Origin: an uncultured Solirubrobacterales bacterium
GTDB taxonomy: Bacteria; Actinomycetota; Thermoleophilia; Solirubrobacterales; 70-9
DNA length: 64,000 bases
Direction of reading: 5' to 3'
NCBI GenBank assembly: GCA_963740055.1
Contig: CAVUCL010000002.1
Span: 24,849-88,848 of the forward strand
Position numbers and translations under genes: made by a program. Shown one piece after another: positions 49,230 to 64,000 of the stretch; the stretch's first letter is position 1, and each line of letters opens with the position of its first letter. The notes under the pieces were generated by a model. The model was not told the origin of the DNA and searched no databases. It saw only the letters and a list, made by a program, of their open reading frames with translations.

Positions 49230-51224
49230 TCAGTCGCGCTCGAGGCGAGCGGCGAGCTCGACGAAGTAGTCGAGCGAGTCCGGGTTCGCGAGCGAGTCCC
49301 GCGAGGCGGCGCGCTCGGGTGCGGTGCCGGTCAGGATCCGCTTCACCGGCACCTCGAGGACCTTGCCGCTGAGCGTGCGCGGGACCTCGTCGATCGCGAA
49401 CACCTCGTCGGGCACGTGGCGCGGCGAGCACTGCTCGCGGATCCGGCGGCGCGATCTCGCCGCGGAGCTCGTCGTCGAGCTCGGCGCCCTCGCGCAGGAC
49501 GACGAACAGCGGCATCCAGCCCTCGGTCCCCGGGCGCGGGACGTCGACGACGAGCGCGTCGATGATCTCGTCGACGGCGGCGACCGCGCGGTAGATCTCC
49601 GAGGTGCCCATGCGGATCCCGGAGCGGTTGATGGTCGAGTCCGAGCGCCCGTAGATGATCGCCGTCCCGCGCGAGGTGATCTCGATCCAGTCGCCGTGGC
49701 GCCAGATGCCCGGGATACATCTCGAAGTAGCTGGCGCGGTAGCGCGAGCCGTCGTCGTCGCCCCAGAAGCACGATCGGCATCGACGGCATCGGCTCGGTG
49801 ATCACCAGCTCGCCGACCTCGTCGACGACCGCCTCGCCGTCCTCGTTCCAGGCCTCGACCGCGCAGCCGAGCGAGCGGCCCTGGAGCTCGCCGCGGTAGA
49901 CGGGCAGCGTCGGCACCCCGCCGACGAACGCGGTGCAGACGTCGGTGCCGCCGGAGGTCGAGAACAGCCAGGTGTCGGCGCCGAGCGTGGTCGTAGATCC
50001 ACTGAAAGCCCTCCGGCGCCAGCGGCGAGCCGGTCGAGCCGACCGCACGCAGGGCGCCGAGGTCGCGGCCCGGCGGCCGGTTCGACCCCTGCCTTCATGC
50101 AGGCGGCGACGTAGCTGGCCGAGGTGCCGAAGCAGGTGACCCCGGCGGCGTCGGCGAGGTCCCAGAGCACGCCCATGTCCGGATGGCCCGGGCTGCCGTC
50201 GTAGAGCACGATCGAGGCCTCGGTGAGCAGGACGCCGACGAGGAAGTTCCACATCATCCAGCCGGTGGTGGTGAACCAGAAGACGCGGTCGCCCGTGCTG
50301 CGCGTCGAGGTGGAGGCTGAGCTTCTTCAGCTGCTCGAGCAGGATCCCGCCGTGGCCCTGGACGATCGCCTTCGGCAGCCCGGTGGTCCCCGACGAGTAG
50401 AGGACCCAGAGCGGGTGGTCGAAGGCGACCTGCTCGAAGGCGATCTCGCCCGGGTCGCCGCCGGCGAGCAGGTCGTCCCAGGTGAGCGCGCCGCGCAGGG
50501 CCGAGGTGTCGGGCGTCGGGATCGAGGTAGGGGAGGACGATCGTGTGCTGAGACCGTGGGCATCTCGGCGAGCAGCCCGGCGACGACGTCGCGGCGGTCG
50601 AAGTCGCGGCCGTTGTAGCGGTAGCCGTCGACGCAGAAGAGCACCTTGGGCTCGATCTGGGCGAAGCGGTCGACGACGCTAGCCGGCGCCGAAGTCGGGC
50701 GAGCAGCTCGACCAGATCGGCGCCGATCGAGGCGCTGGCGAGGAAGGCGATCAGGGCCTCGGGAACGTTCGGCATGTAGGCGACGACGCGGTCGCCCGGC
50801 TCGACCCCGAGCGCGCGCAGTCCCGCCGCGACGCGAGCGACCGCGCTCGCGCAGCTCGCCCCAGGTGAGCGAGTCGAGCTCGCGCAGCTCGGAGGCGTGC
50901 TGGATCGCGAGCCGGTCGGCGGGCTTGGCGCCGAGCAGGTTCTCGGCGTAGTTGAGCCGCGCGCCGGTGAACCACCGCGCGCCCGGCATCTCGCGGCTCG
51001 CGAGCACCTGCTCGTAGGGCTGCCGACGCGCGGACGTCGAAGTGCTCCCAGATCGTCGCCCAGAACTCCTCGAGCGAGTCGATCGACCAGCGCCAGAGCG
51101 CGTCGTAGTCGCCCTCGAACGCGAGCCCGCGCTCGTCGGCGAGCCAGCGCATGTACGCGGTCAGGTTCGAGCGCTCGATCGCCTCGGCCGAGGGTTCCCA
51201 GAGCTTTACCGGCGATTCGTTCAC
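49230..51224 (-). pseudogene. acetoacetyl-CoA synthetase (acyl/acetyl-CoA synthetase family) with about 12 frame disruptions
   Basis: Colinear AACS sequence runs from GTG at 51224 (VNESPVKLWEPSAEAIERSNLTAYMRWL...) to ...SGKVLEVPVKRILTG...ERD, with the stop at 49230. It is spread over ORFs 50751..52217, 50327..51007, 50254..50775, 49802..50257, 49230..50252, 49343..49720 and 49078..49611. Confidence 0.75.
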
Positions 51225-52451
51225 GCGGCGGTCGCCCCGGCGAGCTCCGCCTCGCCGGAGCGGGCCGACGTCGCGGTCGAGGGCGCGGATCAGCTCGAGC
51301 GCGAAGCCGTGGGCGCGCTCGAGCGCCTCGGGTCTGATCGCGCCCGGCTGTCGGTCGGCAGGTGGTGGTCGGGGATCAGGCCGTCGGAGTCGCGACAGGT
51401 GATCGCGATCGACTGCGAAGCCGGCGAGCCGCGGGGGCACCGCGTCGCCCGCCGAGCCGCGGCGCAGCGGCTTCGCGCGAAAGCGCCGGTCGCCCTCGGC
51501 GTCGGCCTCGGCGATCGCCTCGCAGAGCTCGATCAGGCGCCGGTCGGCCGGGTAGCTCGACCACCCAGCCGGCGCCGGTCTCGAAGCGGAGCGTCGCCGC
51601 CGACCGACGCTGTCGAGGTCGATGAACACGGTCGAATCGCGCTCGAGCCGCTTGCGGTGGCGGCGCACGAACGCGCGCATGCCCTCCTGGCCGGCACTCC
51701 TCGGCGCCGTCGAGCACGAACCAGACGTCGAGGTTCGCCGGTGCCTCGGCTTCGAGCTCGCGCGCGAGCGAGATCGCCGTCGCGACCCCGGACGCGTTGT
51801 CGTTGGCGCCGGGGACGACCGCCGAGAGCTCGATCTCGACCAGGGCGAAGAACGCCGACCAGGAGGGCGAGCGTGGGGAGGAGCTGCAGCGACGGAGATC
51901 GCGCCGGAATCGACTCCCGCCATCCGCAGCGCCGAGCAGCGGCAGCAGCGCGGCCAGCGACCAGAACAGGATCCGAAACGGGCCGAGCGGCACGGGACGC
52001 GACGCGCGATCCGGGCCGCGCGCGCGGCGCGGGCGGGGGCGTGGATCGCCCCGGTGCGCCCGGCGTCGAGGTGGGCGCTGACGATCACTCGCAGCGGGGC
52101 GGCCGGGCGCCGGCCGAGCGAGACGACGTTCTGCGAGGCGCGGCGAAAGAACAGCGACCGGACCAGGTAGAGCCGGTAGTTGAGATCGAGGTACATCGAG
52201 GTCGCGGCGACGAGCACGAGCGCGAAGCCCGAGCGCGGGGGTCGAGATCGCGATCAGGCTGCCGGCGAAGCCGAGCGCGCAGTGGGCCGCGTGCACGAGC
52301 GCCGAACTGCGGGTGGACGTAGGTCGGCTCGACCTCGGCTCGGCGGCCGAGCTCGCGCAGGCGCTCGGCGAGCCGGTTCGCGGCCCGCCGCTCGGCGTCG
52401 GTGCCGGCGAGGCGGCCGCTCGAACGAGCAGAGCTCGCGAATGATCTCCAT
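51221..52451 (-). pseudogene. membrane M28-family metallopeptidase with many frame disruptions
   Basis: ATG at 52451 (MEIIRELCSFER...). Pieces LAGTDAERRAANRLAERL, VHAAHCALGFAGSLIAIS, VIVSAHLDAGRTGAI, VVPGANDNASGVATAISLAREL, VWFVLDGAEE and FIDLDSVG occur in alternating frames. The probable stop overlaps the AACS start (GTGA). Confidence 0.55.
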
Positions 52452-52471: not shown

Positions 52472-52555
52472 TGCGGCGGGTGGGACTCGAACCCACAAGC
52501 GCTTTCGCGCAGCGGCTTTTGAGACCGCCACCTTTGCCAATTTGGTCACCGCCGC
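52472..52555 (-). tRNA. tRNA-Leu (anticodon CAA)
   Basis: Hand fold: acceptor GCGGCGG/CCGCCGC, anticodon stem GCGGT/GCCGC with loop CTCAAAA, long variable arm, T arm GTGGG-TTCGAGT-CCCAC, discriminator A. CCA is not encoded. Confidence 0.85.
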
Positions 52556-52571
52556 CGGCCGGACCATTCTG

Positions 52572-52611
52572 CAACAAAAGCGAGAGCCGCCCCTCGAAAG
52601 GGGCGGCTCTC
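52572..52611 (-). terminator. rho-independent terminator of the M28 aminopeptidase gene
   Basis: On the minus strand: GAGAGCCGCCCC-TTTCGA-GGGGCGGCTCTC followed by GCTTTTGTTG. It begins 24 nt after the stop at 52636. Confidence 0.75.
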
Positions 52612-52635
52612 GCGCTCAACCGATGTGAGCGGGCG

Positions 52636-54209
52636 CTACTTGCGCAGCTCCTCGCCCAGGTACTTGCCGCGCATCTTCTTCGCCTTCTTCGTCTTCCTCG
52701 CGGCGTCCGGCCGGGGGATGAACTTGAGGTTGTAGGCGTAGTGGTTGACCGTGTGCGCGACCGCGTCCGACATCTGTCTCAGCCCACGGCGGCTGATGTT
52801 GTCGATGTCGTCGCAGGCTTGGTGGTAGCAGGGATCGAAGGCCTCGCCCTCGGTGCCGCCGTATGCCTGCTGCTGGGCCTCGGTCTTGATCTCCTCCGCC
52901 CCGGTGAACAGGCCACCGGCGGGGATTCCGACGTCGATGAACGGGCCGTAGTCCGAACGCCGTCGAACGCCGTCTGGCCGCTGGCCAGGTCCTTGCGATC
53001 GAAGTAACGCTCGAACGTGCGCTCGATCGCGTCCGAGCCGTCCGGGCCCGGGCTACCGAACTTCGACCCGTTGCCGTCGTAGATGAATCGCGCGAAGTTC
53101 GGCGACCCGATCATGTCGAAGTTGAGGTAGAGCGCGATGTCCGTGCCCTCCTCCTCGGTGAGCTGGGAGACGTAGTAGGTCGAGCCGACGAGGCCCTCCT
53201 CCTCCGCGCCCCAGAACGCGAACCGGAGCTTGTTCTCGGGCGTCAGGCTTCCCTTGCCCTGAGCGATCTGCTCCGCGAGCTCGAGCAGCGTCGCCGAGCC
53301 CGTGCCGTTGTCGTTGATTCCCGGCCCTTCGGTGACGCTGTCGAGGTGCGCACCGGCCATGACCACGTTGTCGGGATCGCCCTTCTTCGTCTCGGCGATC
53401 ACGTTCTCGGTCGTGCGCTCCTCGGAGTGGGTGACCGTCTTGATGTGGACCGTGGTTCCGGTGGCGCCGTTGGCGACCCCGTTCGAGAGATCCTCGCCGG
53501 TGGCGAAGCTCGTGTCGACGGCGGGGATCGCGGCGTTCGGGCCGCCCAGGGTGCCGAAGATGACGTCCGTTCGACCCGGCTGACCCTCGTTGAAGATCAC
53601 CGCGCCGACGGCTCCGGCCGCTGCCGCGTTGTCGACCTTGACCCGGAAGTCACAGGTGCCGCGCTGCATCAGCGCGATCTGGCCCGAGACCCCGGTGCCG
53701 GTGAAGTCCTCCGGCTCGCAGCCCGAGTTCGACGTGCTCGGCTCCGCGCCGGGCGGCAGCACGAGGTCGATCGCCACCAGCTCCTCGGTGACGTCGCCGC
53801 TGCCCGAGAACTCCATCGTCGAGTACTCCTCGTTCTCGACGTAGGTCTGGGGGTCCGGTGCGGTCTGCTCGAACACCGAGTCCTCGTCCTGGAAGAAGAC
53901 GTCGAAGTCGAACGCCTGCAGGCTGACCTTCCAGCCGGCCTTGTCGAGCTTGTCGGCGACGTAGTCGACCGATGCATCGTGCCCGCCGAAGCCGGAGGCG
54001 CGGTTGCCGCCGTTGGCGTCGGCGATCGCCTGGAACTGCTCGAGCTCGTCGATGATCGCATCGACCTCGAGCGCCTGGCGGAGCTTCTGCGAGCCCTCGA
54101 AGCTGCCCGATCCGGAAGCGCTCTTTCCTGCCGTGGCGCTGCCGACGAGCGCGGTGAGCGCGACGAGCGCGGCGATGGCGCCGAGCACGTGCGCGTGTCT
54201 TCTGATCAC
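52636..54209 (-). pseudogene. secreted M28 aminopeptidase with PA domain, one frameshift near the 3' end
   Basis: Signal peptide, then PA domain, then HLDSVTEGPGINDNGTGSATLLELA, FAFWGAEEEGLVGS and NFDMIGSPN. After ...QTAFDG the expected RSDYGPFIDVGIPAGGLFTGAEE...CYHQACDD...LRK continues in another frame to the TAG at 52636. 1574 nt is not a multiple of 3. Confidence 0.8.
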
Positions 54210-54324
54210 GAGTGATCCTCCCTCGAAGAACGTTTCTGCGGGGCCCCCCTTCCCTGCACCGATGACAGGTCGCTACCCGGTTGCGGTCGATCCCATTCCT
54301 GCGCCGAGCGCTACCGTCGAGGGC

Positions 54325-57251: not shown

Positions 57252-57323
57252 GCGGGCGAAGTGTTACTGGTTGCACGTGAGCCTTCCAAGCTCGAAGAAC
57301 GGGTTCGAGCCCCGTCGCCCGCT
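57252..57323 (+). tRNA. tRNA-Gly (anticodon TCC)
   Basis: Acceptor GCGGGCG/CGCCCGC, anticodon loop CTTCCAA, T arm ACGGG-TTCGAGC-CCCGT, discriminator T. Confidence 0.9.
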
Positions 57324-57367: not shown

Positions 57368-57441
57368 CGGGGCGTGGCGCAGTCTGGTAGCGCACTCGGC
57401 TGGGGGCCGAGCGGTCGCTGGTTCAAATCCAGTCGCCCCGA
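57368..57441 (+). tRNA. tRNA-Pro (anticodon GGG)
   Basis: Acceptor CGGGGCG/CGCCCCG, anticodon stem CTCGG/CCGAG with loop CTGGGGG, T arm GCTGG-TTCAAAT-CCAGT, discriminator A. Confidence 0.9.
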
Positions 57442-57451
57442 CTGAGACGAC

Positions 57452-57475
57452 GCGTCCCCGCGTCCCCACGTCCCC
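57452..57475 (+). repeat. three tandem 8-nt iterons (G/A)CGTCCCC right after tRNA-Pro
   Basis: GCGTCCCC GCGTCCCC ACGTCCCC. The reverse complement GGGGACG occurs three times in each long arm repeat (59408-59433 and 63181-63207). Confidence 0.6.
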
Positions 57476-57540
57476 ACTCGGGGGAGGCCCTGCTTTGCGG
57501 CGCGTGAGCGCGGCACGCGGCGGATCCTGAGCCTGCTCGG

Positions 57541-57946
57541 CTAGTCCACGCGCTCGAGCACGATGACCGGGATCTCTCTCTCGGTCCGCCGCTGATACTC
57601 GTCGTAGGCCGGGTAGTAGCCGGCCATCGTCCGCTCACTTCGGTCTCTCCTGGGGAGTCGCCTCCCGCGCCCGGGACTTGAACCTCGCCCTTGATCTGCA
57701 CCTCGACCTCGGGTCTGCCTTCAGGTCGAGATACCAGGGCGGGTGCGTCGGAGCGCCGCAGTCGGACGCGATCAGCACCACGTCGTCGCCGCGGCGCCCG
57801 TAGAGCAGCGGCGTGGTCCGCTTCTCACCCGATTTGCGGCCGGTGGTGGTCAGCAACAGCACGAGGGCCTCGCGCCAGTAGTGGCCCTCCTCGCCGTCGG
57901 TGGTGCGATAGCGCTCGACGTGCTCCTGGCCGTAGAGCTCAGGCAT
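57541..57946 (-). pseudogene. deazaflavin (F420)-dependent nitroreductase/DDN family protein, 3' part disrupted
   Basis: MPELYGQEHVERYRTTDGEEGHYWREALVLLLTTTGRKSGEKRTTPLLYGRRGDDVVLIAS..GAPTHPPWYLDLKADP is intact. Then EVEVQIKGE, FKSRAREATPQERPK and MAGYYPAYDEYQRRTEREIPVIVLERVD lie in three different frames, with an in-frame TGA. Confidence 0.65.
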
Positions 57947-58140
57947 GACGCGATCATCGCAGGTGGCCGATCGCGGTTTGGCGGCTCGTCTCGCGGCGTG
58001 GCGACGACGTGTGAACACCCGCGCCGAGGCTGAACTGGCGGCGGCGCCGCGACGAGTAGGAGTCCGTGCTGGGAGATCATGGCCTGCGCCCTTCGCGTGG
58101 ATGCGGGGACCTCGGCCGCTGGGATGAGACTCCGCCATAC

Positions 58141-58257
58141 CCGCTTTGGATGAAAGCCGGCAGCCGCGATCAGGCCGGTAGCGTGCTCGCTCCACGATCC
58201 GTGGGTGCTAACGAGAAGCGAATCGGGCCGGGTATTCGATTTACCTGCGACGCACGG
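58141..58257 (+). repeat. R2 repeat, copy A
   Basis: CCGCTTTGGA...GATCAGGCCGGTAGCG.GCTCGCTC.ACGATCCGTG.GT...CGAGAA.CGAATCGGGCC...ACCTGCGA. By eye about 80% identical to copy C over ~115 nt. Confidence 0.6.
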
Positions 58258-58285
58258 ACCTAGGCGGAGGAAGTTGGGCTGGCGG

Positions 58286-58534
58286 TCAGCGCTTCTTAGC
58301 CTTGGCCTTCGTCTTGCGCTTGCCCTTGCCACTCGACGCGCCGGCTCGCTTGGTGACCGACCCCGCGGCGCCCTTGGCGGTGCTGCCGACCGCCTTGGCG
58401 GCCTTTGTGACGCTCTTTCCGGCGCTTCGCGCCGAGCTTTTGACGTCCTTTGCGCTGGACTTTGCCGCGTTGCGCTTGCGCGTTGCGGCTCCCTTCTTCG
58501 CTGCGGCGCTGCGTTGAGCCTTGGTCCGTGACAT
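58286..58534 (-). CDS. Lys/Ala-rich histone-H1-like basic protein
   Basis: ATG at 58534 with AGGAGG 6 nt upstream. 82 aa: MSRTKAQRSAAAKKGAATRKRNAAKSSAKD...GKGKRKTKAKAKKR. Confidence 0.6.
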   Translation of the reverse strand: MSRTKAQRSAAAKKGAATRKRNAAKSSAKDVKSSARSAGKSVTKAAKAVGSTAKGAAGSVTKRAGASSGKGKRKTKAKAKKR

Positions 58535-58637
58535 GGCTGTCCTCCTGTTCGCGAAAGCGAGAAGTCTAAGCGCACACCTGGTCGATTGAGGCATGGCCCC
58601 AACGTCAGCTGATGCGGCCGGGCGGAAGCCGGTCGAG

Positions 58638-58736
58638 TCATCAGCTGTCACGCCGGGAAGCGCATTCGCTCGACTATTCGTGCGTCGTAGCGAGAAACGA
58701 ATCGGGCCACGTATCGGATCTCGCTACGACGCACGG
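58638..58736 (+). repeat. R2 repeat, copy B (contains an intact long hairpin)
   Basis: Shares CATTCGCTCGAC.ATTCGTGCGTCGTAGCGAGAAACGAATCGGGCC with copy C. 58680-58694 (GTGCGTCGTAGCGAG) pairs perfectly with 58720-58734 (CTCGCTACGACGCAC) across a 25-nt loop. Confidence 0.6.
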
Positions 58737-58805
58737 CCAGGCACGGAGAAGTACCGATTTGCATGGAAAGCGCAACATCCATAAGCGCGTGATTAGCTGT
58801 CGGGG

Positions 58806-59219
58806 ATGCCTAAGCGCCTGCTGATAGCTGCCGGCGAGGCCGCTGACAGAGCGGACGCGCTGCCATTCGGAGTCCCCGAACTCATCGAGGCGGCAGATGA
58901 GGTCCTCGTTATCACCCCGGCCCTACCGACTCGCTTCGAGTGGCTCGCGTCGGCTACCGACAAGGCACGCGAGCAGGCGGATGTGCGGCTTCGAGAGGTT
59001 CTCACCCAAATCGAAGAGCTAGGCGCTGAGGCCGATGGTGAGGTTGGAGCGGATGACCCGATGCTGGCCTTCGAGGACGCGCTGCGGGACTTTCCGGCCG
59101 ATCACATCCTGGTGGGCCTTCGTTCAGCGGATCATGCCGGCTGGCAGGAGCGCGGTCTGTTGGATCAGTTACTGGAGCGCTTCGCGCGCCCGGTCACGGT
59201 CTTCTCGCTCGGCGACTAG
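58806..59219 (+). CDS. hypothetical protein
   Basis: 137 aa acidic protein (MPKRLLIAAGEAADRADALPFGVPELIEAADEVLVITPALP...ADHILVGLRSADHAGWQERGL...). Lower-GC codons than the core genome. Confidence 0.5.
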   Translation: MPKRLLIAAGEAADRADALPFGVPELIEAADEVLVITPALPTRFEWLASATDKAREQADVRLREVLTQIEELGAEADGEVGADDPMLAFEDALRDFPADHILVGLRSADHAGWQERGLLDQLLERFARPVTVFSLGD

Positions 59220-59228
59220 CGGTCTAGG

Positions 59229-59340
59229 CCGCTTTGGACTAAAAGCGATAGCCGGCGATCAGGCCGCTAGGCGTACTCGCTCGACGATCCGTGCGTCGTA
59301 GCGAGAAACGAATCGGGCCCCCGATCCGAACCTGCGAAGG
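59229..59340 (+). repeat. R2 repeat, copy C (directly abuts the arm repeat)
   Basis: See copies A and B. It begins 10 nt after the stop of the 58806..59219 gene and ends 2 nt before the arm repeat. Confidence 0.6.
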
Positions 59341-59342
59341 TC

Positions 59343-59495
59343 GTGGTACCGCTTTGGTACCCACTGCTGCGTCCAATGCGTCCAGAACGTCCACGGCGGT
59401 GGACGATGGGGACGCGGGGGACGCTCCGGGACGCATCTACGCCGACCGCGTCGCTGGGGGCCGAGCGGTCGCTGGTTCAAATCCAGTCGCCCGGA
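59343..59495 (+). repeat. arm repeat plus tRNA-Pro 3' core copy (attR-like junction 1)
   Basis: GTGGTACCGCTTTGGTACC...CGTCCAGAACGTCCACGGCGGTGGACGATGGGGACGCGGGGGACGCTCCGGGACGCATCTAC..., then the core. It matches 63116-63271 nearly base for base. Confidence 0.7.
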
Positions 59496-59496
59496 T

Positions 59497-59790
59497 CAGA
59501 GCGAAAGCGGGCTCGCCAAACGGGTTTTCGACCGCGCCGCACAGCTCTCGGGTATCCCGCCGTATTCGCACGGTACCGCCGCTGGTGCCAACTGGGCCAT
59601 CGACTATTTCGAGGCCCTGCACCCGTACTCGGCCGGTGGCGCGTACGTAAACAAGATGATGGACGAGGGTCAGGAGCGGGTCCGCGCCAGCTACCGCGAC
59701 ACCTACGGCCGCCTCGCGCAAACCAAGGCGACCTACGATGAGGACAAACCCTTTCTCCGCGTCAATCAGAACCTTGAGCCGAAGGCGTAG
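59497..59790 (+). pseudogene. 3' fragment of an FAD-linked oxidase (berberine-bridge-enzyme-like C-terminus)
   Basis: Own translation with no start codon: ...ANWAIDYFEALHPYSAGGAYVNKMMDEGQERVRASYRDTYGRLAQTKATYDEDKPFLRVNQNLEPKA*. This is the BBE-domain tail pattern (YVN...Y..NY.RL...K..YDP.N.F..NQNI.P). The open frame begins at the core copy. Confidence 0.5.
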
Positions 59791-60101
59791 AGCTCTGCGG
59801 CGGTCGGTCCAGCAGTACGAGCAGACAAGACCGGCAGCGACACTTCTTTGGCGCCGACGACCCTCGAAAGGCGAACAGCCTGAGCGTGCACGGGGGATAG
59901 ATACGAATCCGTAGCCGACCGAACATTTGTTTGGGCAGCGGCTGAGTCCGGGTACAGCGAGGGTTGCAGGCAGCTTTGCGTCGGCAAGGGCGATGACAAC
60001 CTGCTAACACCGGCTGGGAGCAAATGGGCGGGAGTGGCTTACAGTCACCCTGGCACGGCCCACGGCGGGAGAGAGAGCAAAGGAACGGAGAACGGAAACC
60101 T

Positions 60102-60434
60102 ATGGAAGCAGGAACCAAGACCGGGGGGTACCGTGCGGGGCAGGGCGACTCAGTTCGTCACACCGGCATCGTCCGGCGCCTGACGACGGAGACCAAGCAG
60201 GCCTTCAAGACCACCGAGTTTTGGGCCATGGTCGGGGTCGTCGGTGGCGATCCTCGGTCAGCGCGGCCGCGGATCAACGGCGGCGACACCAGCGGAACCG
60301 ATGAGCTCATCGCCCGCCAGGCGTGGCTCTACGTCGCGATCGTCGCCAGCGCCTATCTGATCAGTCGCGGTCTGGCCAAGGCCGGTTCGAGCGATCCTAG
60401 ACGGATCGCACGACGACAACAACGGAAGTCGTAA
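60102..60434 (+). CDS. small hypothetical (membrane?) protein, possibly internally frame-disturbed
   Basis: ATG at 60102 after AAAGGAACGGAG. KTTEFWAMVGVV... and ...ARQAWLYVAIVASAYLISRGLAKAGSSDP look like two TM segments. The stretch between them is Arg/Gly-rich and atypical. Confidence 0.35.
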   Translation: MEAGTKTGGYRAGQGDSVRHTGIVRRLTTETKQAFKTTEFWAMVGVVGGDPRSARPRINGGDTSGTDELIARQAWLYVAIVASAYLISRGLAKAGSSDPRRIARRQQRKS

Positions 60435-60559
60435 CTAGGACCGCAAAGCGGGGTGCAGGCGGAAGCCGGCGCACCTTGTACCCAGACCGGCCGGGCCCCC
60501 CTTTGGGGGCTGCGGCCGGTCGTTGATAACCGAGTCAGCAATCGAAGGGATCTAGCCCC

Positions 60560-61007
60560 ATGGCCGCACAGAGAAGACCCAGCGCCAGCCAGCCGCCAAG
60601 AAGGCCGCTGCGACGCGCAAGCGAAACTCCGCCGTCAGAGCGGTGGAACCGCCAAGGCCTCCGCTCGCCGGACGAGGAGTTCCGCGCAGCGCACCGGGCG
60701 GGCCGCGAGCACGACCGCCAAGCAGGCCGCCCGCGCAGCCTCCCGTCGCGCCAACGCGGAGACGACCCGCCTTGGCGGCGTCGCCCACCAAGCCGAGCGT
60801 GCTGTTCTGATTCCGGTCGGCGCCGCGTTGGAAGCGCGCGACCGAGTCACGGACACGGTTCGCACCTACAGCGACACCCGGCTCACTCGTCAGGAACTGA
60901 ATCGATTGAGCGACGGGGTGCCGAGGCGCTCGGGCGTGGGCGACGCGCACGCAGCGGAGCGTCGGGCTAGGCACGCTTCGCGGGTTGCCACGTGGACCGG
61001 CTCGTAG
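60560..61007 (+). pseudogene. Lys/Ala-rich N-terminus fused to a conserved helical domain, apparently frameshifted
   Basis: Three frames carry successive pieces: MAAQR, then KTQRQPAAKKAAATRKRNSA (resembles the 58286..58534 protein), then SGGTAKASARR...LGGVAHQAERAVLIPVGAALEARDRVTDTVRTYSD. Confidence 0.35.
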
Positions 61008-61026
61008 GCTCTTCGAGTGCGGATCG

Positions 61027-61821
61027 TGAGCTGGAATGTCGCGCGACTCAGGGAGCGCTTAGCCGAACAGGCTGCCGCGCTCGCGGGCGCGAACCGGACG
61101 TGGTCGCGCTTCAGGAGGTCACTCGACGCACGCTCCCGTTGTGGAACGCCGCGCTCGCGACGCTCGGACTAACCCACATTCGCGCCTCACTCGATCACGC
61201 CGACCCCGCCCGGCAGCCGGCAGCTCGGCGACGCACCGGGTCCTCCTCAGCTCCCGTGCTCCGCTGACAGACGCCTCGACGACCCTGTCCGTCCCGTGGC
61301 CGGAGACTGCCCTCGCGGCAACCACGTCATCGGTGGCCACCGGTGTCGTGGAGCTCCATTGCGTTCACGTCCCGAATGCGGCAAATGGGTGGGTAAAGAT
61401 CCGGACTTTGGAGGCCATCCGGAGCGGGCTCGCCGGCGGCCCGCCAACGCCGCGGGTGCTGTGCGGGGATCTCAATACCCCGCGCCGCGAGCTGCCCAGC
61501 GGAGAGGTGATCTCGTTTGCCCGGGACTCCCGGGGCCGCCTTCGTCCAGAACGCGGAACCGAATGGGATAGCGCTGAGCTGGGCGTCGTTCCGGGGCTTC
61601 GGGACGTGGGCTACGAGGATGCCTTTCGAACCCTCCACGGCTACGCGAGCCAGGAGCCGAGTTGGACCTGGCGGCGCATAGCGGGCCACGACGGCGGTTG
61701 GCGCCTGGATCACCTCTTCGCGTCAAAGGAGCTTCGCCCCGTCGCGGCTATGTATCACCACGGATGGCGCGAGCTCGGCCTCAGCGACCATTCGCCGCTC
61801 GAGGTCGATCTCCGGACGTAA
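61027..61821 (+). pseudogene. endonuclease/exonuclease/phosphatase (EEP) family protein with two frameshifts
   Basis: VRIVSWNVARLRERLAEQAAALAG (frame a), EPDVVALQEVTRRTLPLWNAALATLGL...(frame b), and ...VELHCVHVPNAANGW...VLCGDLNTPR...WRLDHLFAS...GLSDHSPLEVDL (ORF 61141..61821). Confidence 0.65.
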
Positions 61822-62112
61822 GGTTGACGCGGCCCCGCCGTGCCTGCAGTTACTCGTCGACGAAAGCGAGCCCTCAACGTTTCCGCTCGACGCCGGCCCC
61901 GGCAGCTCGGGGATGCCGAGCAGGGCAGCCTCGCGCCAGCGGCACTCTCTTCGCACTTTGTCGGCCTGATGATCGCGCGGTGAACTGGCGAGCATCGCCA
62001 ATCGTTTCGCTTGCGGCCATCCTTCTGGGTCCTGCCGCTGGCGATAACGACTGGTGCGGGGTTCCACGGGGTCTCGGGGTCGAAGTCCCTGTCGCGAAAC
62101 CGCTGTTCTCCG

Positions 62113-62451
62113 CTAGGTATCGCTGCGTGGATCGAGCCGCTCGAGCTTCTCGTCGAGCTCCGGCGGCTTCTCAACGATCGCCCAGACCTCGTGTCGCTCG
62201 ATCACGATTTCGACGTCCGGAATCTCGTGGCCCGGCACGATGACGAAGTGGCGCGAGTCGGCGCGCACCTTCTCGTAGTCGGCTTTGCGAAGGAGCACCT
62301 TCTCGCGGCAATGTGGATCTGCGCACTCACAGAAGTACTGCTCAGTCTGGGACTGAACATGCTGCTCTTCCCAGTCCGCCATCCGCTCGTTGGCGGTGCG
62401 GAATAGGGCCTCGTTTTCGGCAAGTCGTTTTTCGCGGGGAGTTGCAGTCAT
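62113..62451 (-). CDS. hypothetical protein
   Basis: 112 aa: MTATPREKRLAENEALFRTANERMADWEEQH...YFCECADPHCREKVLL...HFVIVPGHEIPDVEIVIERHEVWAIVEK. Intact, coding-like, no family recognised. Confidence 0.5.
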   Translation of the reverse strand: MTATPREKRLAENEALFRTANERMADWEEQHVQSQTEQYFCECADPHCREKVLLRKADYEKVRADSRHFVIVPGHEIPDVEIVIERHEVWAIVEKPPELDEKLERLDPRSDT

Positions 62452-62483
62452 GGGTTTCGCGAGGAGCCTACCGAGCCGGCTCC

Positions 62484-62894
62484 TCAGGACATGGGTGCGA
62501 GCTCGAACCAGATGTCGCTCGAAGGCGCGTTGACGCCCCAGCGGGAAGCGAGCACGTCAACGATCCGCAGTCCAAGGCCGCTGTCGCGGACATTCCGCGG
62601 CGCCGCGAACCCCACCGGGCCCTGGCCTCCGTCACTGACGGTCCCACGTATGACTCCACCGGGTGTGACTCCGATCACGACCGCGATCGGACCTCCGGTC
62701 CCGTGGCGGACCGAGTTGTCGACCAACTCGGTGACGACCATCCGCAGGTCGTGGAGCGTCGAAGCCGGAAGAAGGTCGGTAAGTCCACCGAGGCGCCGTC
62801 GGGCCGTCCTGTCGGCGCTCGGCACGCTGTCGAGGAGGATGTCGAGGCCTGACGAGCCGTCGCTTCGCGTCCACGGCGTCGCCCTGACATCCAT
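62484..62894 (-). CDS. HATPase_c-type ATP-binding protein (RsbW/SpoIIAB-like anti-sigma kinase fold)
   Basis: ATG at 62894 after AGGAGGGAG. LRMVVTELVDNSVRHG...VSDGGQG...DSGLGLRIVDVLASRWGV gives the N, G1 and G2 boxes. Confidence 0.65.
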   Translation of the reverse strand: MDVRATPWTRSDGSSGLDILLDSVPSADRTARRRLGGLTDLLPASTLHDLRMVVTELVDNSVRHGTGGPIAVVIGVTPGGVIRGTVSDGGQGPVGFAAPRNVRDSGLGLRIVDVLASRWGVNAPSSDIWFELAPMS

Positions 62895-63115
62895 TTGTCT
62901 CCCTCCTGGGCGACCCCACCGCCCGTGGTCCGAGCCGTGTGGCCCGGCATGGTCTATGCCTTGGCGGGAAGCCGATCCGCGGGCCGCGGGAACGGTCCGG
63001 CCAAGTTCACGTGTACCCGAAAGCGGTCGCCGGCAACAGGCTTCGCCGTCGACTGCTAGGCCGGCGCCTTCGGAGAAACGCGCTTCCCATACAAGGGCGG
63101 TACTTCCCGGCGGGG

Positions 63116-63271
63116 GTGGTACCGCCCTGGTACCGACTGCTACGTCCCATCCGTCCAGAACGTCCACGGCGGTGGACGATGGGGACGCGGGGGACGCTCC
63201 GGGACGCATCTACACCGACCGTCTGCCGGCTGGGGGCCGAGCGGTCGCTGGTTCAAATCCAGTCGCCCCGA
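63116..63271 (+). repeat. arm repeat plus exact tRNA-Pro 3' core copy (attR-like junction 2)
   Basis: See 59343..59495. The core 63227-63271 is identical to 57397-57441. A weak R2-like stretch precedes it (about 63013-63115). Confidence 0.7.
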
Positions 63272-63368
63272 TTCCGAAAGCTCGCTTCCGGTGCGGGCTT
63301 TCAGCTCGTCTGGGGTCGTTGACAGGTTGGGTCGCGGCAACTGTGGTACCAAGCGCAAACCAACGGAT

Positions 63369-63410
63369 CTGGGGCCGAGCGGTAGCTGGTTCTAATTCAG
63401 TCGCCCCAAC
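63369..63410 (+). repeat. degenerate fourth copy of the tRNA-Pro 3' core
   Basis: CTGGGGCCGAGCGGTAGCTGGTTCTAATTCAGTCGCCCCAA against CTGGGGGCCGAGCGGTCGCTGGTTCAAATCCAGTCGCCCCGA: about 85% identity with one missing G. Confidence 0.55.
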
Positions 63411-63571
63411 TAGGCGTGAACGATGCGAGGAAGGCGAAACCCGATTCTGTGTCCCACCACGCGCTCCGGCGCCAAGGAGCCGAGTCGCTCACCGGCTCCG
63501 GCGAACCGCTCGCCGAACGTTCGCTATTCCCACCGCAGCCCTGCCACGACGTCTGATCATAAGATCGGCGG

Positions 63572-64000
63572 ATGAATACGCCGCGCGAGCGCCTGCTCAA
63601 GCAGTTTCTCGTCGCGCCGGGCGAGGCGCCAACCTCGCCGGCAGGGACCCGGGATCAACCGGAGGCTCGGCGTTCGCAGAACTCGCTCAGGAGGGGCTGG
63701 AGGTGCGGGCTAGGGACGCAATCGCACGCGCATCACGGAGCTCCGCGAGGCACAGGAGCTGCTCTGGACGACCGACAGGTACCGGTGGTCTCGTAGCGCT
63801 ATGAGGACATCAACGCCTTCGAGCGCCACCTCGGCGTGGGCGCCGTGGCATGTGATCCCAGCCGACCATTGGTGGGTGGCGCAGGCGATCGTGGCTTCGG
63901 TGCTCGTGGAAAAGCTGCACTCGATCCTCAGCGGCCCGAGGTCTCCGCCGCGGACCACGCCGCCAACCTGGAGGCCCGCGAGGCCCTCGAGGCCGAGCAG
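63572..64000 (+). pseudogene. polyphosphate kinase 2 (PPK2) family remnant with internal deletions and frame changes (runs to window end)
   Basis: MNTPRERLLKQFLVAPGE..., then RYEDINAFERHL, then in another frame APWHVIPADHWWVAQAIVASVLVEKLHSIL. The P-loop region normally between these blocks is missing. Confidence 0.5.

Follow-up and report, generated by a model that had tools for sequence, protein, structure and literature searches.

The 64,000-nt stretch of contig CAVUCL010000002.1 from an uncultured Solirubrobacterales bacterium, here called the window, carries towards its distal end a tRNA-Gly(tcc) gene at 57252-57323 and a tRNA-Pro(ggg) gene at 57368-57442 (ARAGORN), and behind the latter lies a tandem array of small gene islands bounded by copies of the 3' part of tRNA-Pro. 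This array is the subject of the present analysis. The tRNA-Pro gene itself is complete and intact (Rfam tRNA, 62.2 bits). The repeat search of the window yielded one repeat family at this place, with four 45-nt copies, all in direct orientation on the plus strand. Core copy 1 (57397-57441), the reference and the putative attachment-site (att) core of attL, is formed by positions 30-74 of the tRNA gene and is followed by core copies 2 (59451-59495), 3 (63227-63271) and 4 (63365-63409). The last of these is degenerate (80-87% to the tRNA, depending on the alignment) and has no arm, and it was recovered by the repeat search and by an nhmmer profile (E=2.4e-7). A 39-nt core pattern with up to 3 mismatches found 3 matches in the window as against 0 in 100 shuffles. 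The initial annotation had reported that the tRNA-Pro 3' end recurs three times in the same orientation, and this is borne out, with identities to the tRNA of 93, 100 and 80% that are far beyond chance; the coordinates given there were correct to within 3-4 nt, and the missing G and one change noted in copy 2 correspond to 3 mismatches in an ungapped alignment. The block of identity extends from the 5' strand of the anticodon stem to the discriminator base of tRNA-Pro, and judged by its extent it appears to be the classic tRNA attB/attP layout.

A segment of 106 nt precedes both core 2 (59343-59448) and core 3 (63116-63221), with 93% identity and 61 nt exact between the two places. The putative P arms of junction 2 (59343..59450, plus strand) and junction 3 (63116..63226, plus strand) were each recovered by repeat search, motif search, nhmmer (E=1e-32 for junction 2) and an alignment of 8 copies, and the 61 exact nucleotides cover the hexamer repeats. 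Each arm is laid out as GGTACC-N5-GGTACC, three CGTCC, TGGACG and three GGGACG, with the inverted pair CGTCCAC-GGCG-GTGGACG at its centre; its 7 CGTCC/GGACG hexamers are spaced by 9-12 nt, about one helical turn. Alignment of the 8 arm copies, which come from 6 assemblies, has shown that the right half, GGACGAT-GGGGACGC-GGGGACGC...GGACG, is invariant and that the spacers vary, and the left boundary of the arm is equally sharp in every context examined. No significant mutual similarity was found among the flanks left of the arms and right of the cores. By eye, a short GCGGAAGCCCGCT-like hairpin motif recurs in the right flanks of the cores. A 15-nt motif (GCTTCCCATACAAGG / GCTTTCCATGCAAAT), for which zero chance matches are expected in the window, occurs at 63082-63096 on the plus strand, 20 nt left of the arm of junction 3, and at 58757-58771 on the minus strand, upstream of the 137-aa protein gene of the first island; similar strings stand 15-20 nt left of the arms in two of the comparison contigs (labelled with L numbers throughout), L016 and L132.

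On the other side, the tRNA-proximal flank of the first island (57443..57545, plus strand), a putative P' arm, carries three tandem CGTCCCC heptamers at 57453-57475, and this heptamer is the reverse complement of the GGGGACG repeats of the arms. The heptamer pattern CGTCCCCNCGTCCCC has this flank as its sole site in 64 kb, with 0.24 sites expected. In their arrangement the arms and the inverted heptamers match an attP with arm-type sites which would have been split into attL (tRNA and heptamers) and attR (arm and core). We infer that the GGGGACG repeats are bound by an excisionase or by an integrase through its arm-binding domain. The arm was also considered as an RNA or hairpin element; a long interrupted hairpin is possible, but its z-score is -1.5, the 8 copies contain no compensatory changes and 140 of 500 shuffles reach the observed covariation value. 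Because the folding energy is unremarkable and covariation is absent, the symmetry of the arm is read as DNA sites for protein binding and not as RNA. The Rfam scan returned no RNA family for the arm or for the 'rep' repeat described below. The arm-core unit was likewise rejected as a miniature inverted-repeat transposable element (MITE) or repetitive extragenic palindromic (REP) repeat, as the 64 kb contain it just twice, it lacks matching terminal inverted repeats and its end coincides in every case with the tRNA 3' end.

Island A (57443-59450) retains both of its ends, the tRNA core with the CGTCCCC flank on the left and the arm with core 2 on the right. The gene nearest to the tRNA (57547..57948, minus strand) belongs to the F420H2-dependent quinone reductase / deazaflavin-dependent nitroreductase family (PF04075, E=9e-27; NCBIfam TIGR00026) and is spread over three reading frames in this assembly, with its C-terminal piece in another frame. 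It is followed by an open reading frame for an 82-aa Lys/Ala-rich protein (58286..58534, minus strand) which is 'histone-like' by composition alone and has no Pfam or NCBIfam match; the gene has a copy with 91% nucleotide identity in L127. The third gene (58806..59219, plus strand) encodes a 137-aa protein of a very widespread family, as seen from its metagenome homologs, which number 1229 at E<=1e-5, with 75-99% identity for the best 120 listed. The family is without annotation in Pfam, NCBIfam or PADLOC, and its member here is a strongly conserved protein of soil Thermoleophilia-type bacteria. Island A also holds three plus-strand copies of the hairpin-containing 'rep' repeat of about 120 nt, namely copy 1 at 58141..58257 (repeat search, blastn), copy 2 at 58648..58736 with a 22-bp inverted repeat (repeat search) and copy 3 at about 59229..59342 (repeat search, blastn), which abuts the arm of junction 2. 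The same repeat is found in L127 (1918-2033), L130 (1442-1594), L133 (7252-7314 and 7829-7919) and L135 (9678-9726, 13869-13946 and 18206-18272). It opens with a CGCTTTGGA-like motif, has a 22-bp hairpin stem and in related contigs often stands on both sides of the 137-aa gene; the motif CGCTTTGG is common to 'rep' and to the left end of the arm (GGTACCGCTTTGGTACC).

Island B (59496-63226) retains its right end only, i.e. the arm and core 3, and on the left it breaks off exactly at core 2, within the gene of a BBE-type FAD oxidase. The C-terminal fragment of this gene starts at core 2 (59496..59790, plus strand; PF08031 BBE, E=1.4e-5, last ~45 residues) and the N-terminal part was not found in any frame, and the fragment is a true truncation. 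Further to the right lie open reading frames for a small membrane protein and an Ala/Arg-rich 137-aa protein (60103..61007, plus strand), frameshifted here and intact with 108 and 137 aa in L130, and an exonuclease III-like gene of the EEP family (61017..61821, plus strand; PF03372, and NCBIfam xth with E=2e-16 on the L130 copy). The EEP gene misses two single bases in the window (gaps 61084 and 61237) and is intact with 268 aa in L130, L133 and L128. Two minus-strand genes complete the island. An open reading frame for a 112-aa protein (62113..62451) has counterparts that always stand beside an RsbW-like gene in the relatives L127-L132, and the RsbW-like anti-sigma kinase itself (136 aa, 62484..62894) has been assigned through HATPase_c matches (PF02518/PF13581) and homologs, its match to the NCBIfam RsbA family falling below the curated cut-off.

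Beyond core 3 there is a 93-nt spacer without an arm (63272..63364, plus strand), which has no significant similarity to the arms or to the other flanks and may be the vestige of a third island or native DNA. It leads to core 4, which is probably either the displaced original tRNA 3' end or the oldest scar; its right flank CTAG weakly resembles the native flank in L003. The claim of three tandem islands made in the initial annotation stands as regards tandem accretion, and the evidence amounts to two islands and a 93-nt vestige, with just two junctions armed. Outside the array, frame reading has identified an eroded PPK2-like remnant (63572..63990, plus strand) in pieces in three frames with most of the domain gone. 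Pfam PPK2 matches a hand-joined composite of these pieces with E=0.24 only, and the PPK2 gene that had been proposed downstream is therefore reduced to a weak remnant.

The islands hold 3-6 genes on both strands within 2-3.7 kb, and PADLOC has found no defence genes in the cargo. The cargo consists of host-type genes, several of which are ordinary chromosomal genes without an arm or core nearby in L128, L129, L131, L133 and L135. The base composition of the islands (GC 0.665) is lower than that of window positions 1-57000 (0.717), and the third-position GC content (GC3) of the island genes is 0.63-0.81 as against 0.87-0.96 in the neighbouring genes. Most contigs bearing island genes have a GC of ~0.66-0.68, like the islands here. 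These values are most simply read as a sign that the islands came in from a relative of lower GC.

The CAP-domain gene upstream of the tRNAs led to four Solirubrobacterales metagenome-assembled genomes. Two of these, L001 and L003, have the same order of tRNA-Leu, tRNA-Leu, tRNA-Trp, CAP, CAP, tRNA-Gly and tRNA-Pro, with one core each. In L001 tRNA-Pro is followed by a small hypothetical gene and then by genes for proteins which by sequence resemble an aquaporin-type channel, an arsenate reductase and an ArsR-type regulator; in L003 it is followed by a Gp49-like toxin gene and a helix-turn-helix gene. Because the syntenic relatives differ wholly in the genes after tRNA-Pro, this site is regarded as a hypervariable hotspot. 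The distal flank of the window was not found after tRNA-Pro in any relative examined (L001, L003, L131), and the arrangement of tRNA-Pro directly before a PPK2 gene, looked for as the empty site, was not encountered, since the syntenic relatives carry other genes there. In L131 a tRNA-Pro-like gene is directly followed by a DUF1206 gene; the 5' half of this tRNA-like gene is degenerate, and its right flank contains 20 nt similar to the flank of core 2 in the window.

The arm-core unit is present in at least five other Solirubrobacterales metagenome assemblies (L011, L016, L127, L130 twice, and L132), where it stands beside different genes. In JGI metagenomes, a corrected 24-nt degenerate arm pattern gave L011 and L016 as the sole true relatives among the matches listed, which are mostly chance; L126 was also dismissed as a chance match. 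Closer contigs (L127-L132) were found via homologs of the RsbW-like cargo protein. The sample of short metagenome contigs is small and biased towards arm or cargo queries. L130 is 96.9% identical to window positions 59835-63290 (island B, arm and core 3) over 3.47 kb, and after core 3 it continues with a different block of 2.8 kb and then half an arm and a core; of the four genes called in this block, two have Polyketide_cyc2-like and NosD/beta-helix matches. Over the 112-aa gene, the RsbW-like gene, the arm and the core, L127 has 97.4% identity to the window, and the adjoining DNA is different on either side. The genes to the left are others, with products that show DUF7144 and faint ydhR matches, and to the right follows an island A-like block of an APH-like gene, 'rep', the histone-like gene and more genes. 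The end of L127 consists of a 13-nt core remnant and then the heptamer flank, 96% identical to window positions 57430-57526. Beyond one and the same arm-core junction, contigs with ~97% identity to island B differ in their DNA, which means that the array was reshuffled recently.

The remaining units are more fragmentary. In L011 an HD-domain (HD-GYP-like) gene is followed by arm and core at the contig end. In L132 the arm is followed by a core truncated in the T-loop and directly adjoins the EEP gene, and L134 has the left half of the arm only. In the contig L016 (Ga0190271_10108366, 2447-100, minus strand) a tRNA-Pro that breaks off in the T-arm is followed by a GspE/PilB ATPase gene, a duplicated tRNA 5' part (the upstream 20 nt and the first 25 nt of the tRNA), ~290 nt, and then arm and core. 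The duplicated 5' part is not of a kind that site-specific integration yields and may be a rearrangement or an assembly chimera. The pair of RsbW-like and 112-aa genes also occurs without an adjoining arm or core, with the EEP gene in L128, just upstream of tRNA-Pro in L129 and L131, and beside a sigma factor and STAS gene in L132. In L131 (1712-3722) and L129 (10001-12021) the two genes stand ~1.2 kb upstream of tRNA-Pro(GGG) in the same direction; in the window they are downstream and inverted, in island B. Similarly, a stretch of a 505-kb contig (L135) has the 137-aa gene of island A in a chromosomal setting with no arm or core. At 3927-5123 of L132, 1.1 kb right of its truncated arm-core unit, a 398-aa protein is encoded which has a DnaG primase N-terminal-type domain and C-terminal membrane segments; downstream of it lie a 112-aa paralog and then a module of a STAS protein, a sigma factor and an RsbW-like gene.

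The six-frame Pfam scan of 57400-64000 has found no integrase, resolvase, transposase or relaxase, in agreement with the initial annotation, which had seen no integrase, excisionase, transposase, phage or conjugation gene between the copies. Five families only were returned (F420H2_quin_red, BBE, Exo_endo_phos, HATPase_c and HATPase_c_2). Further, phmmer with the L134 integrase and a regular expression for box II gave no match in stop-free frames of at least 50 aa over the whole window and none in the arm-bearing loci. For positions 1-57000 the search comprised reading of the translations (ordinary metabolic genes), phmmer and the regular expression, the Pfam scan being confined to the array. 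No integrase stands near the arm-core unit in L011, L016, L127, L130 or L132. In the phage and plasmid collections the matches were to the tRNA-like core only and none was to the arm, and IMG/VR gave no arm match. Two candidates were discarded. The integrase encoded in L134 (Pfam E=6e-25) lies 3 kb from a homolog of the 137-aa protein and 11 kb from the half arm, with no GGGGACG repeats or core nearby and with no relatives in IMG/VR, and the open reading frame at 12371-12973 of L003, considered as an integrase N-terminus, was dropped for want of Pfam support.

These features can be accounted for by the tandem accretion of recombinase-less islands, resembling the cis-mobilizable elements (CIMEs) of other bacteria, at a tRNA-Pro hotspot by site-specific recombination, a reading to which we assign a probability of roughly 0.6. 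Direct repeats of the tRNA 3' part with an intact tRNA regenerated at one end, and short motifs repeated on both element sides of the core, are features of att sites that are found here; the accompanying tyrosine recombinase gene, inside the element and beside the att site, is absent. Successive integrations by one element family into the 3' end of tRNA-Pro(GGG) would have built the array, the att site of the family being the 45-nt core, from the anticodon stem to the tRNA 3' end, flanked by the GGGGACG-repeat arms. Island A would be a complete unit that lacks a recombinase and keeps both att sites, island B would have lost its tRNA-proximal end through a deletion anchored at the core, and core 4 with the 93-nt spacer would represent the oldest event or the displaced native tRNA end. 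Because none of the islands encodes a recombinase, they would be CIME-type units, cis-mobilizable or decayed, whose excision, reinsertion or reshuffling would need a cognate integrase in trans, which could be supplied by a complete relative elsewhere in the genome or by one incoming from outside. Movement in trans may still take place. The exchange at the cores is recent, and it may be due either to a trans-acting integrase or to homologous recombination of the ~150-nt repeats with each other. Thus, the earlier reading of the locus as a set of integration scars has gained support from the arms, the heptamers and the strain differences as regards scars at a tRNA 3' end, their tandem order and the absence of a recombinase, and for the type of enzyme we infer that a tyrosine recombinase made the junctions.

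A number of observations weigh against accretion by site-specific recombination. Neither a cognate integrase nor a complete two-armed element with an int gene was found in the window, the arm-bearing contigs, the phage and plasmid collections or IMG/VR, and ~8 islands or flanks beside arm-core units contain not even an integrase fragment (0 cases), which exceeds what random decay would predict. Island B has no recognisable left arm. The invariant sharp left boundary of the arm in all contexts is also counted here. The cargo seems atypical of element-borne DNA, and its capture is left unexplained by the favoured account. Moreover, the reshuffling from strain to strain could also stem from homologous recombination between the ~150-nt repeats, and the comparison contigs are short and may hold errors or chimeras.

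In an alternative that seems unlikely to us, the arm-core unit would be the ~150-nt relic of one old integration which has since been moved by homologous recombination, duplication and deletion in a hypervariable neighbourhood of stress genes, the genes between the copies would be rearranged native DNA, and site-specific recombination would have played no recent part. RecA-dependent exchange can take place between 150-nt repeats with 87-93% identity. The cargo genes are indeed neighbours of tRNA-Pro or of each other in relatives, as seen for the RsbW-like and 112-aa genes upstream of tRNA-Pro in L131 and L129; in L133 genes like those of island B directly adjoin genes like those of island A, without an intervening core, and L135 has the 137-aa gene close to members of the PAP2 and DUF1206 families, which flank tRNA-Pro in L131. 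The duplicated tRNA 5' part and upstream flank of L016 are not what site-specific integration would leave. Native DNA is, however, difficult to reconcile with island GC and GC3 values that are foreign to this genome. The hexamers are far better conserved than the spacers across assemblies with unrelated flanks, which implies selection for binding, and with the inverted heptamers beside the tRNA the att layout has both of its arms. All copies are direct and end exactly at the tRNA 3' end.

An integron-like cassette system, which we hold to be quite improbable, would explain the missing recombinase in another way. In such a system the ~150-nt sites, composed of the arm and the tRNA-Pro 3' half, would be used by a single integrase encoded elsewhere to insert, excise and shuffle islands which never had an integrase of their own. 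The integrase-free state of all ~8 islands or flanks (~8/8) fits this well, as do the single sharp left edge of the arm across unrelated contexts and the different cargo, with no conserved second arm, to the right of each core. Host-type cargo that is chromosomal in relatives, and an array order and content that vary among contigs 97% identical to island B, would also be expected. The second, arm-like flank of island A with its inverted heptamer fits a classical two-armed attP, and multi-gene islands of 2-3.7 kb with genes in both orientations are unlike integron cassettes. No integrase was found by phmmer and the regular expression at the tRNA-proximal end or within 57 kb upstream, and the palindrome of the arm shows no structural covariation. 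Partial arms (the second unit of L130, and L134) and truncated cores (L132, L127) resemble decay, and the sample of contigs, found via arm or cargo homologs, is small and biased.

An assembly artefact, with repeats mis-joined or expanded in a noisy long-read metagenome assembly (to which at least 8 frame changes in the acetoacetyl-CoA synthetase gene and many 1-nt indels against a 97%-identical contig bear witness), is very improbable, because the copies differ from each other in cores and arms and each has unique flanks, the junction of RsbW-like gene, arm and core is found in two independent assemblies from other samples (L127 and L130), so that assembly duplication does not explain it, and related junctions occur in JGI metagenomes (L011 and L016).

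When the tandem accretion of recombinase-less islands is compared with known systems, it appears to be a known phenomenon of which this is a fresh example in uncultured Solirubrobacterales, here with a defined two-armed att site. The only unusual trait is the lack of a recombinase of its own in every block, both here and in related strains. In actinomycetes, elements of the pSAM2 type integrate in tRNA-Pro, with an att segment from the anticodon loop to the 3' end and a tyrosine integrase with arm-type sites; they measure ~11 kb and have int, xis, rep and transfer genes. The locus is similar to these in its actinobacterial host and in the att segment at the 3' part of tRNA-Pro, and the similarity to plasmid and phage sequences is limited to the tRNA-like core.

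For families of elements that are integrative and conjugative (ICEs) or integrative and mobilizable (IMEs), a three-step route of integration, decay to a CIME and accretion of another element has been described (Guedon et al. 2017, PMC5704250). A CIME derives from a related ICE or IME and is mobilised once a related element integrates beside it (PMC5704250). Like the CIMEs of the ICESt1/ICESt3 family of streptococci (PMC5704250), the islands are att-bounded segments without integration or transfer genes, arranged in tandem at a target gene's 3' end, and would need a recombinase from a relative. Both attL and attR, which a CIME keeps, are present in island A, and island B has the right, arm-bearing junction only; the genes named in PMC5704250 are absent from the islands and may once have been present. 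Unlike those CIMEs, the islands have tRNA-Pro as their target, only island A is two-ended, the units are very small (2-3.7 kb) and the cargo is host-type. Their mobilisation is putative, and a parent ICE or IME was not found in the collections searched (phage, plasmid, IMG/VR and metagenomes).

Tycheposons of Prochlorococcus islands likewise stand in tandem, with partial tRNAs between them (Hackl et al., bioRxiv 10.1101/2020.12.28.424599). The two kinds of array share tRNA-anchored hotspots, older scars placed deeper, variable cargo and populations that differ in the elements present. Tycheposons have their own tyrosine recombinase or fragments of it, whereas no recombinase or fragment is seen in any island here, and the partial tRNAs are accompanied by a 106-nt arm. 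With integron arrays the locus has in common tandem recombinase-less units, a conserved site (~60-150 nt) with inverted repeats, a putative integrase in trans and a variable order. It differs from them in that there is no adjacent intI/attI, the genes lie on both strands, the site includes the tRNA 3' half, the arm is not hairpin-supported and one unit is two-armed. An integron would have intI with attI and a promoter at the head of the array, and no integrase was found by the above searches beside the tRNA or in the 57 kb upstream. Nor do the islands have the form of integron cassettes, which comprise one, usually promoterless, open reading frame in one orientation before an attC that works as a folded hairpin.

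If accretion in tandem through site-specific recombination is the correct reading, an att site consisting of the 45-nt core and the GGGGACG arms has been defined for a family of integrative elements in a poorly known, uncultured order of soil actinobacteria, and the gene content behind tRNA-Pro would turn over between strains that are 97% identical. The arm profile could serve as a probe for the missing integrase and for the frequency of recombinase-less islands. Should integrases be missing from all islands without exception, the locus would resemble a cassette platform more than a set of decayed elements and be of more interest; in case the cassette reading is true, soil Solirubrobacterales would have an integron-like system on a tRNA att site, with multi-gene cassettes.

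The quality of the consensus has a bearing on the cargo. In the 3.47 kb shared with L130, the window shows 62 substitutions and 33 indel events, of which 24 are single-base. Single bases are absent from the EEP and Ala/Arg-rich genes of the window, and both genes are intact in L130. Outside the islands, the acetoacetyl-CoA synthetase gene (49.25-51.2 kb) is broken into at least 9 pieces alternating among three frames, which retain 70-87% amino-acid identity to the L001 and L003 orthologs. The gene after it (51.26-52.42 kb) is also split, and the genes on either side of 49250-52420 are intact. The frameshifts in this interval look like an error-rich long-read consensus and not like true pseudogenes, and most of the broken island genes are probably consensus indel errors in the same way. 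As a 97%-identical contig has intact versions of these genes and a conserved gene outside the islands is likewise frameshifted, the frameshifted cargo is no evidence of island decay. The 'wrecked genes' of the initial annotation are accordingly mostly 1-nt indels that are absent from L130, and real structural damage is confined to the BBE-oxidase fragment and the PPK2-like remnant. A similar caution applies to genome scans, where frameshifted cargo in noisy long-read metagenome assemblies is no evidence of decay.

Another tRNA gene of the window, at some distance from the array, shows a difference from the syntenic relatives. In the interval 52472-54300 tRNA-Leu(caa) is on the minus strand here and on the plus strand in L001 and L003. 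Between this tRNA and an SRAP-family gene lies an M28-peptidase gene (52779-54209) of lower GC (0.65-0.68) with a frameshifted C-terminus, which is without a counterpart in the syntenic stretch of L001 or L003. A second tRNA gene may thus have been the site of a small insertion or inversion in this interval.

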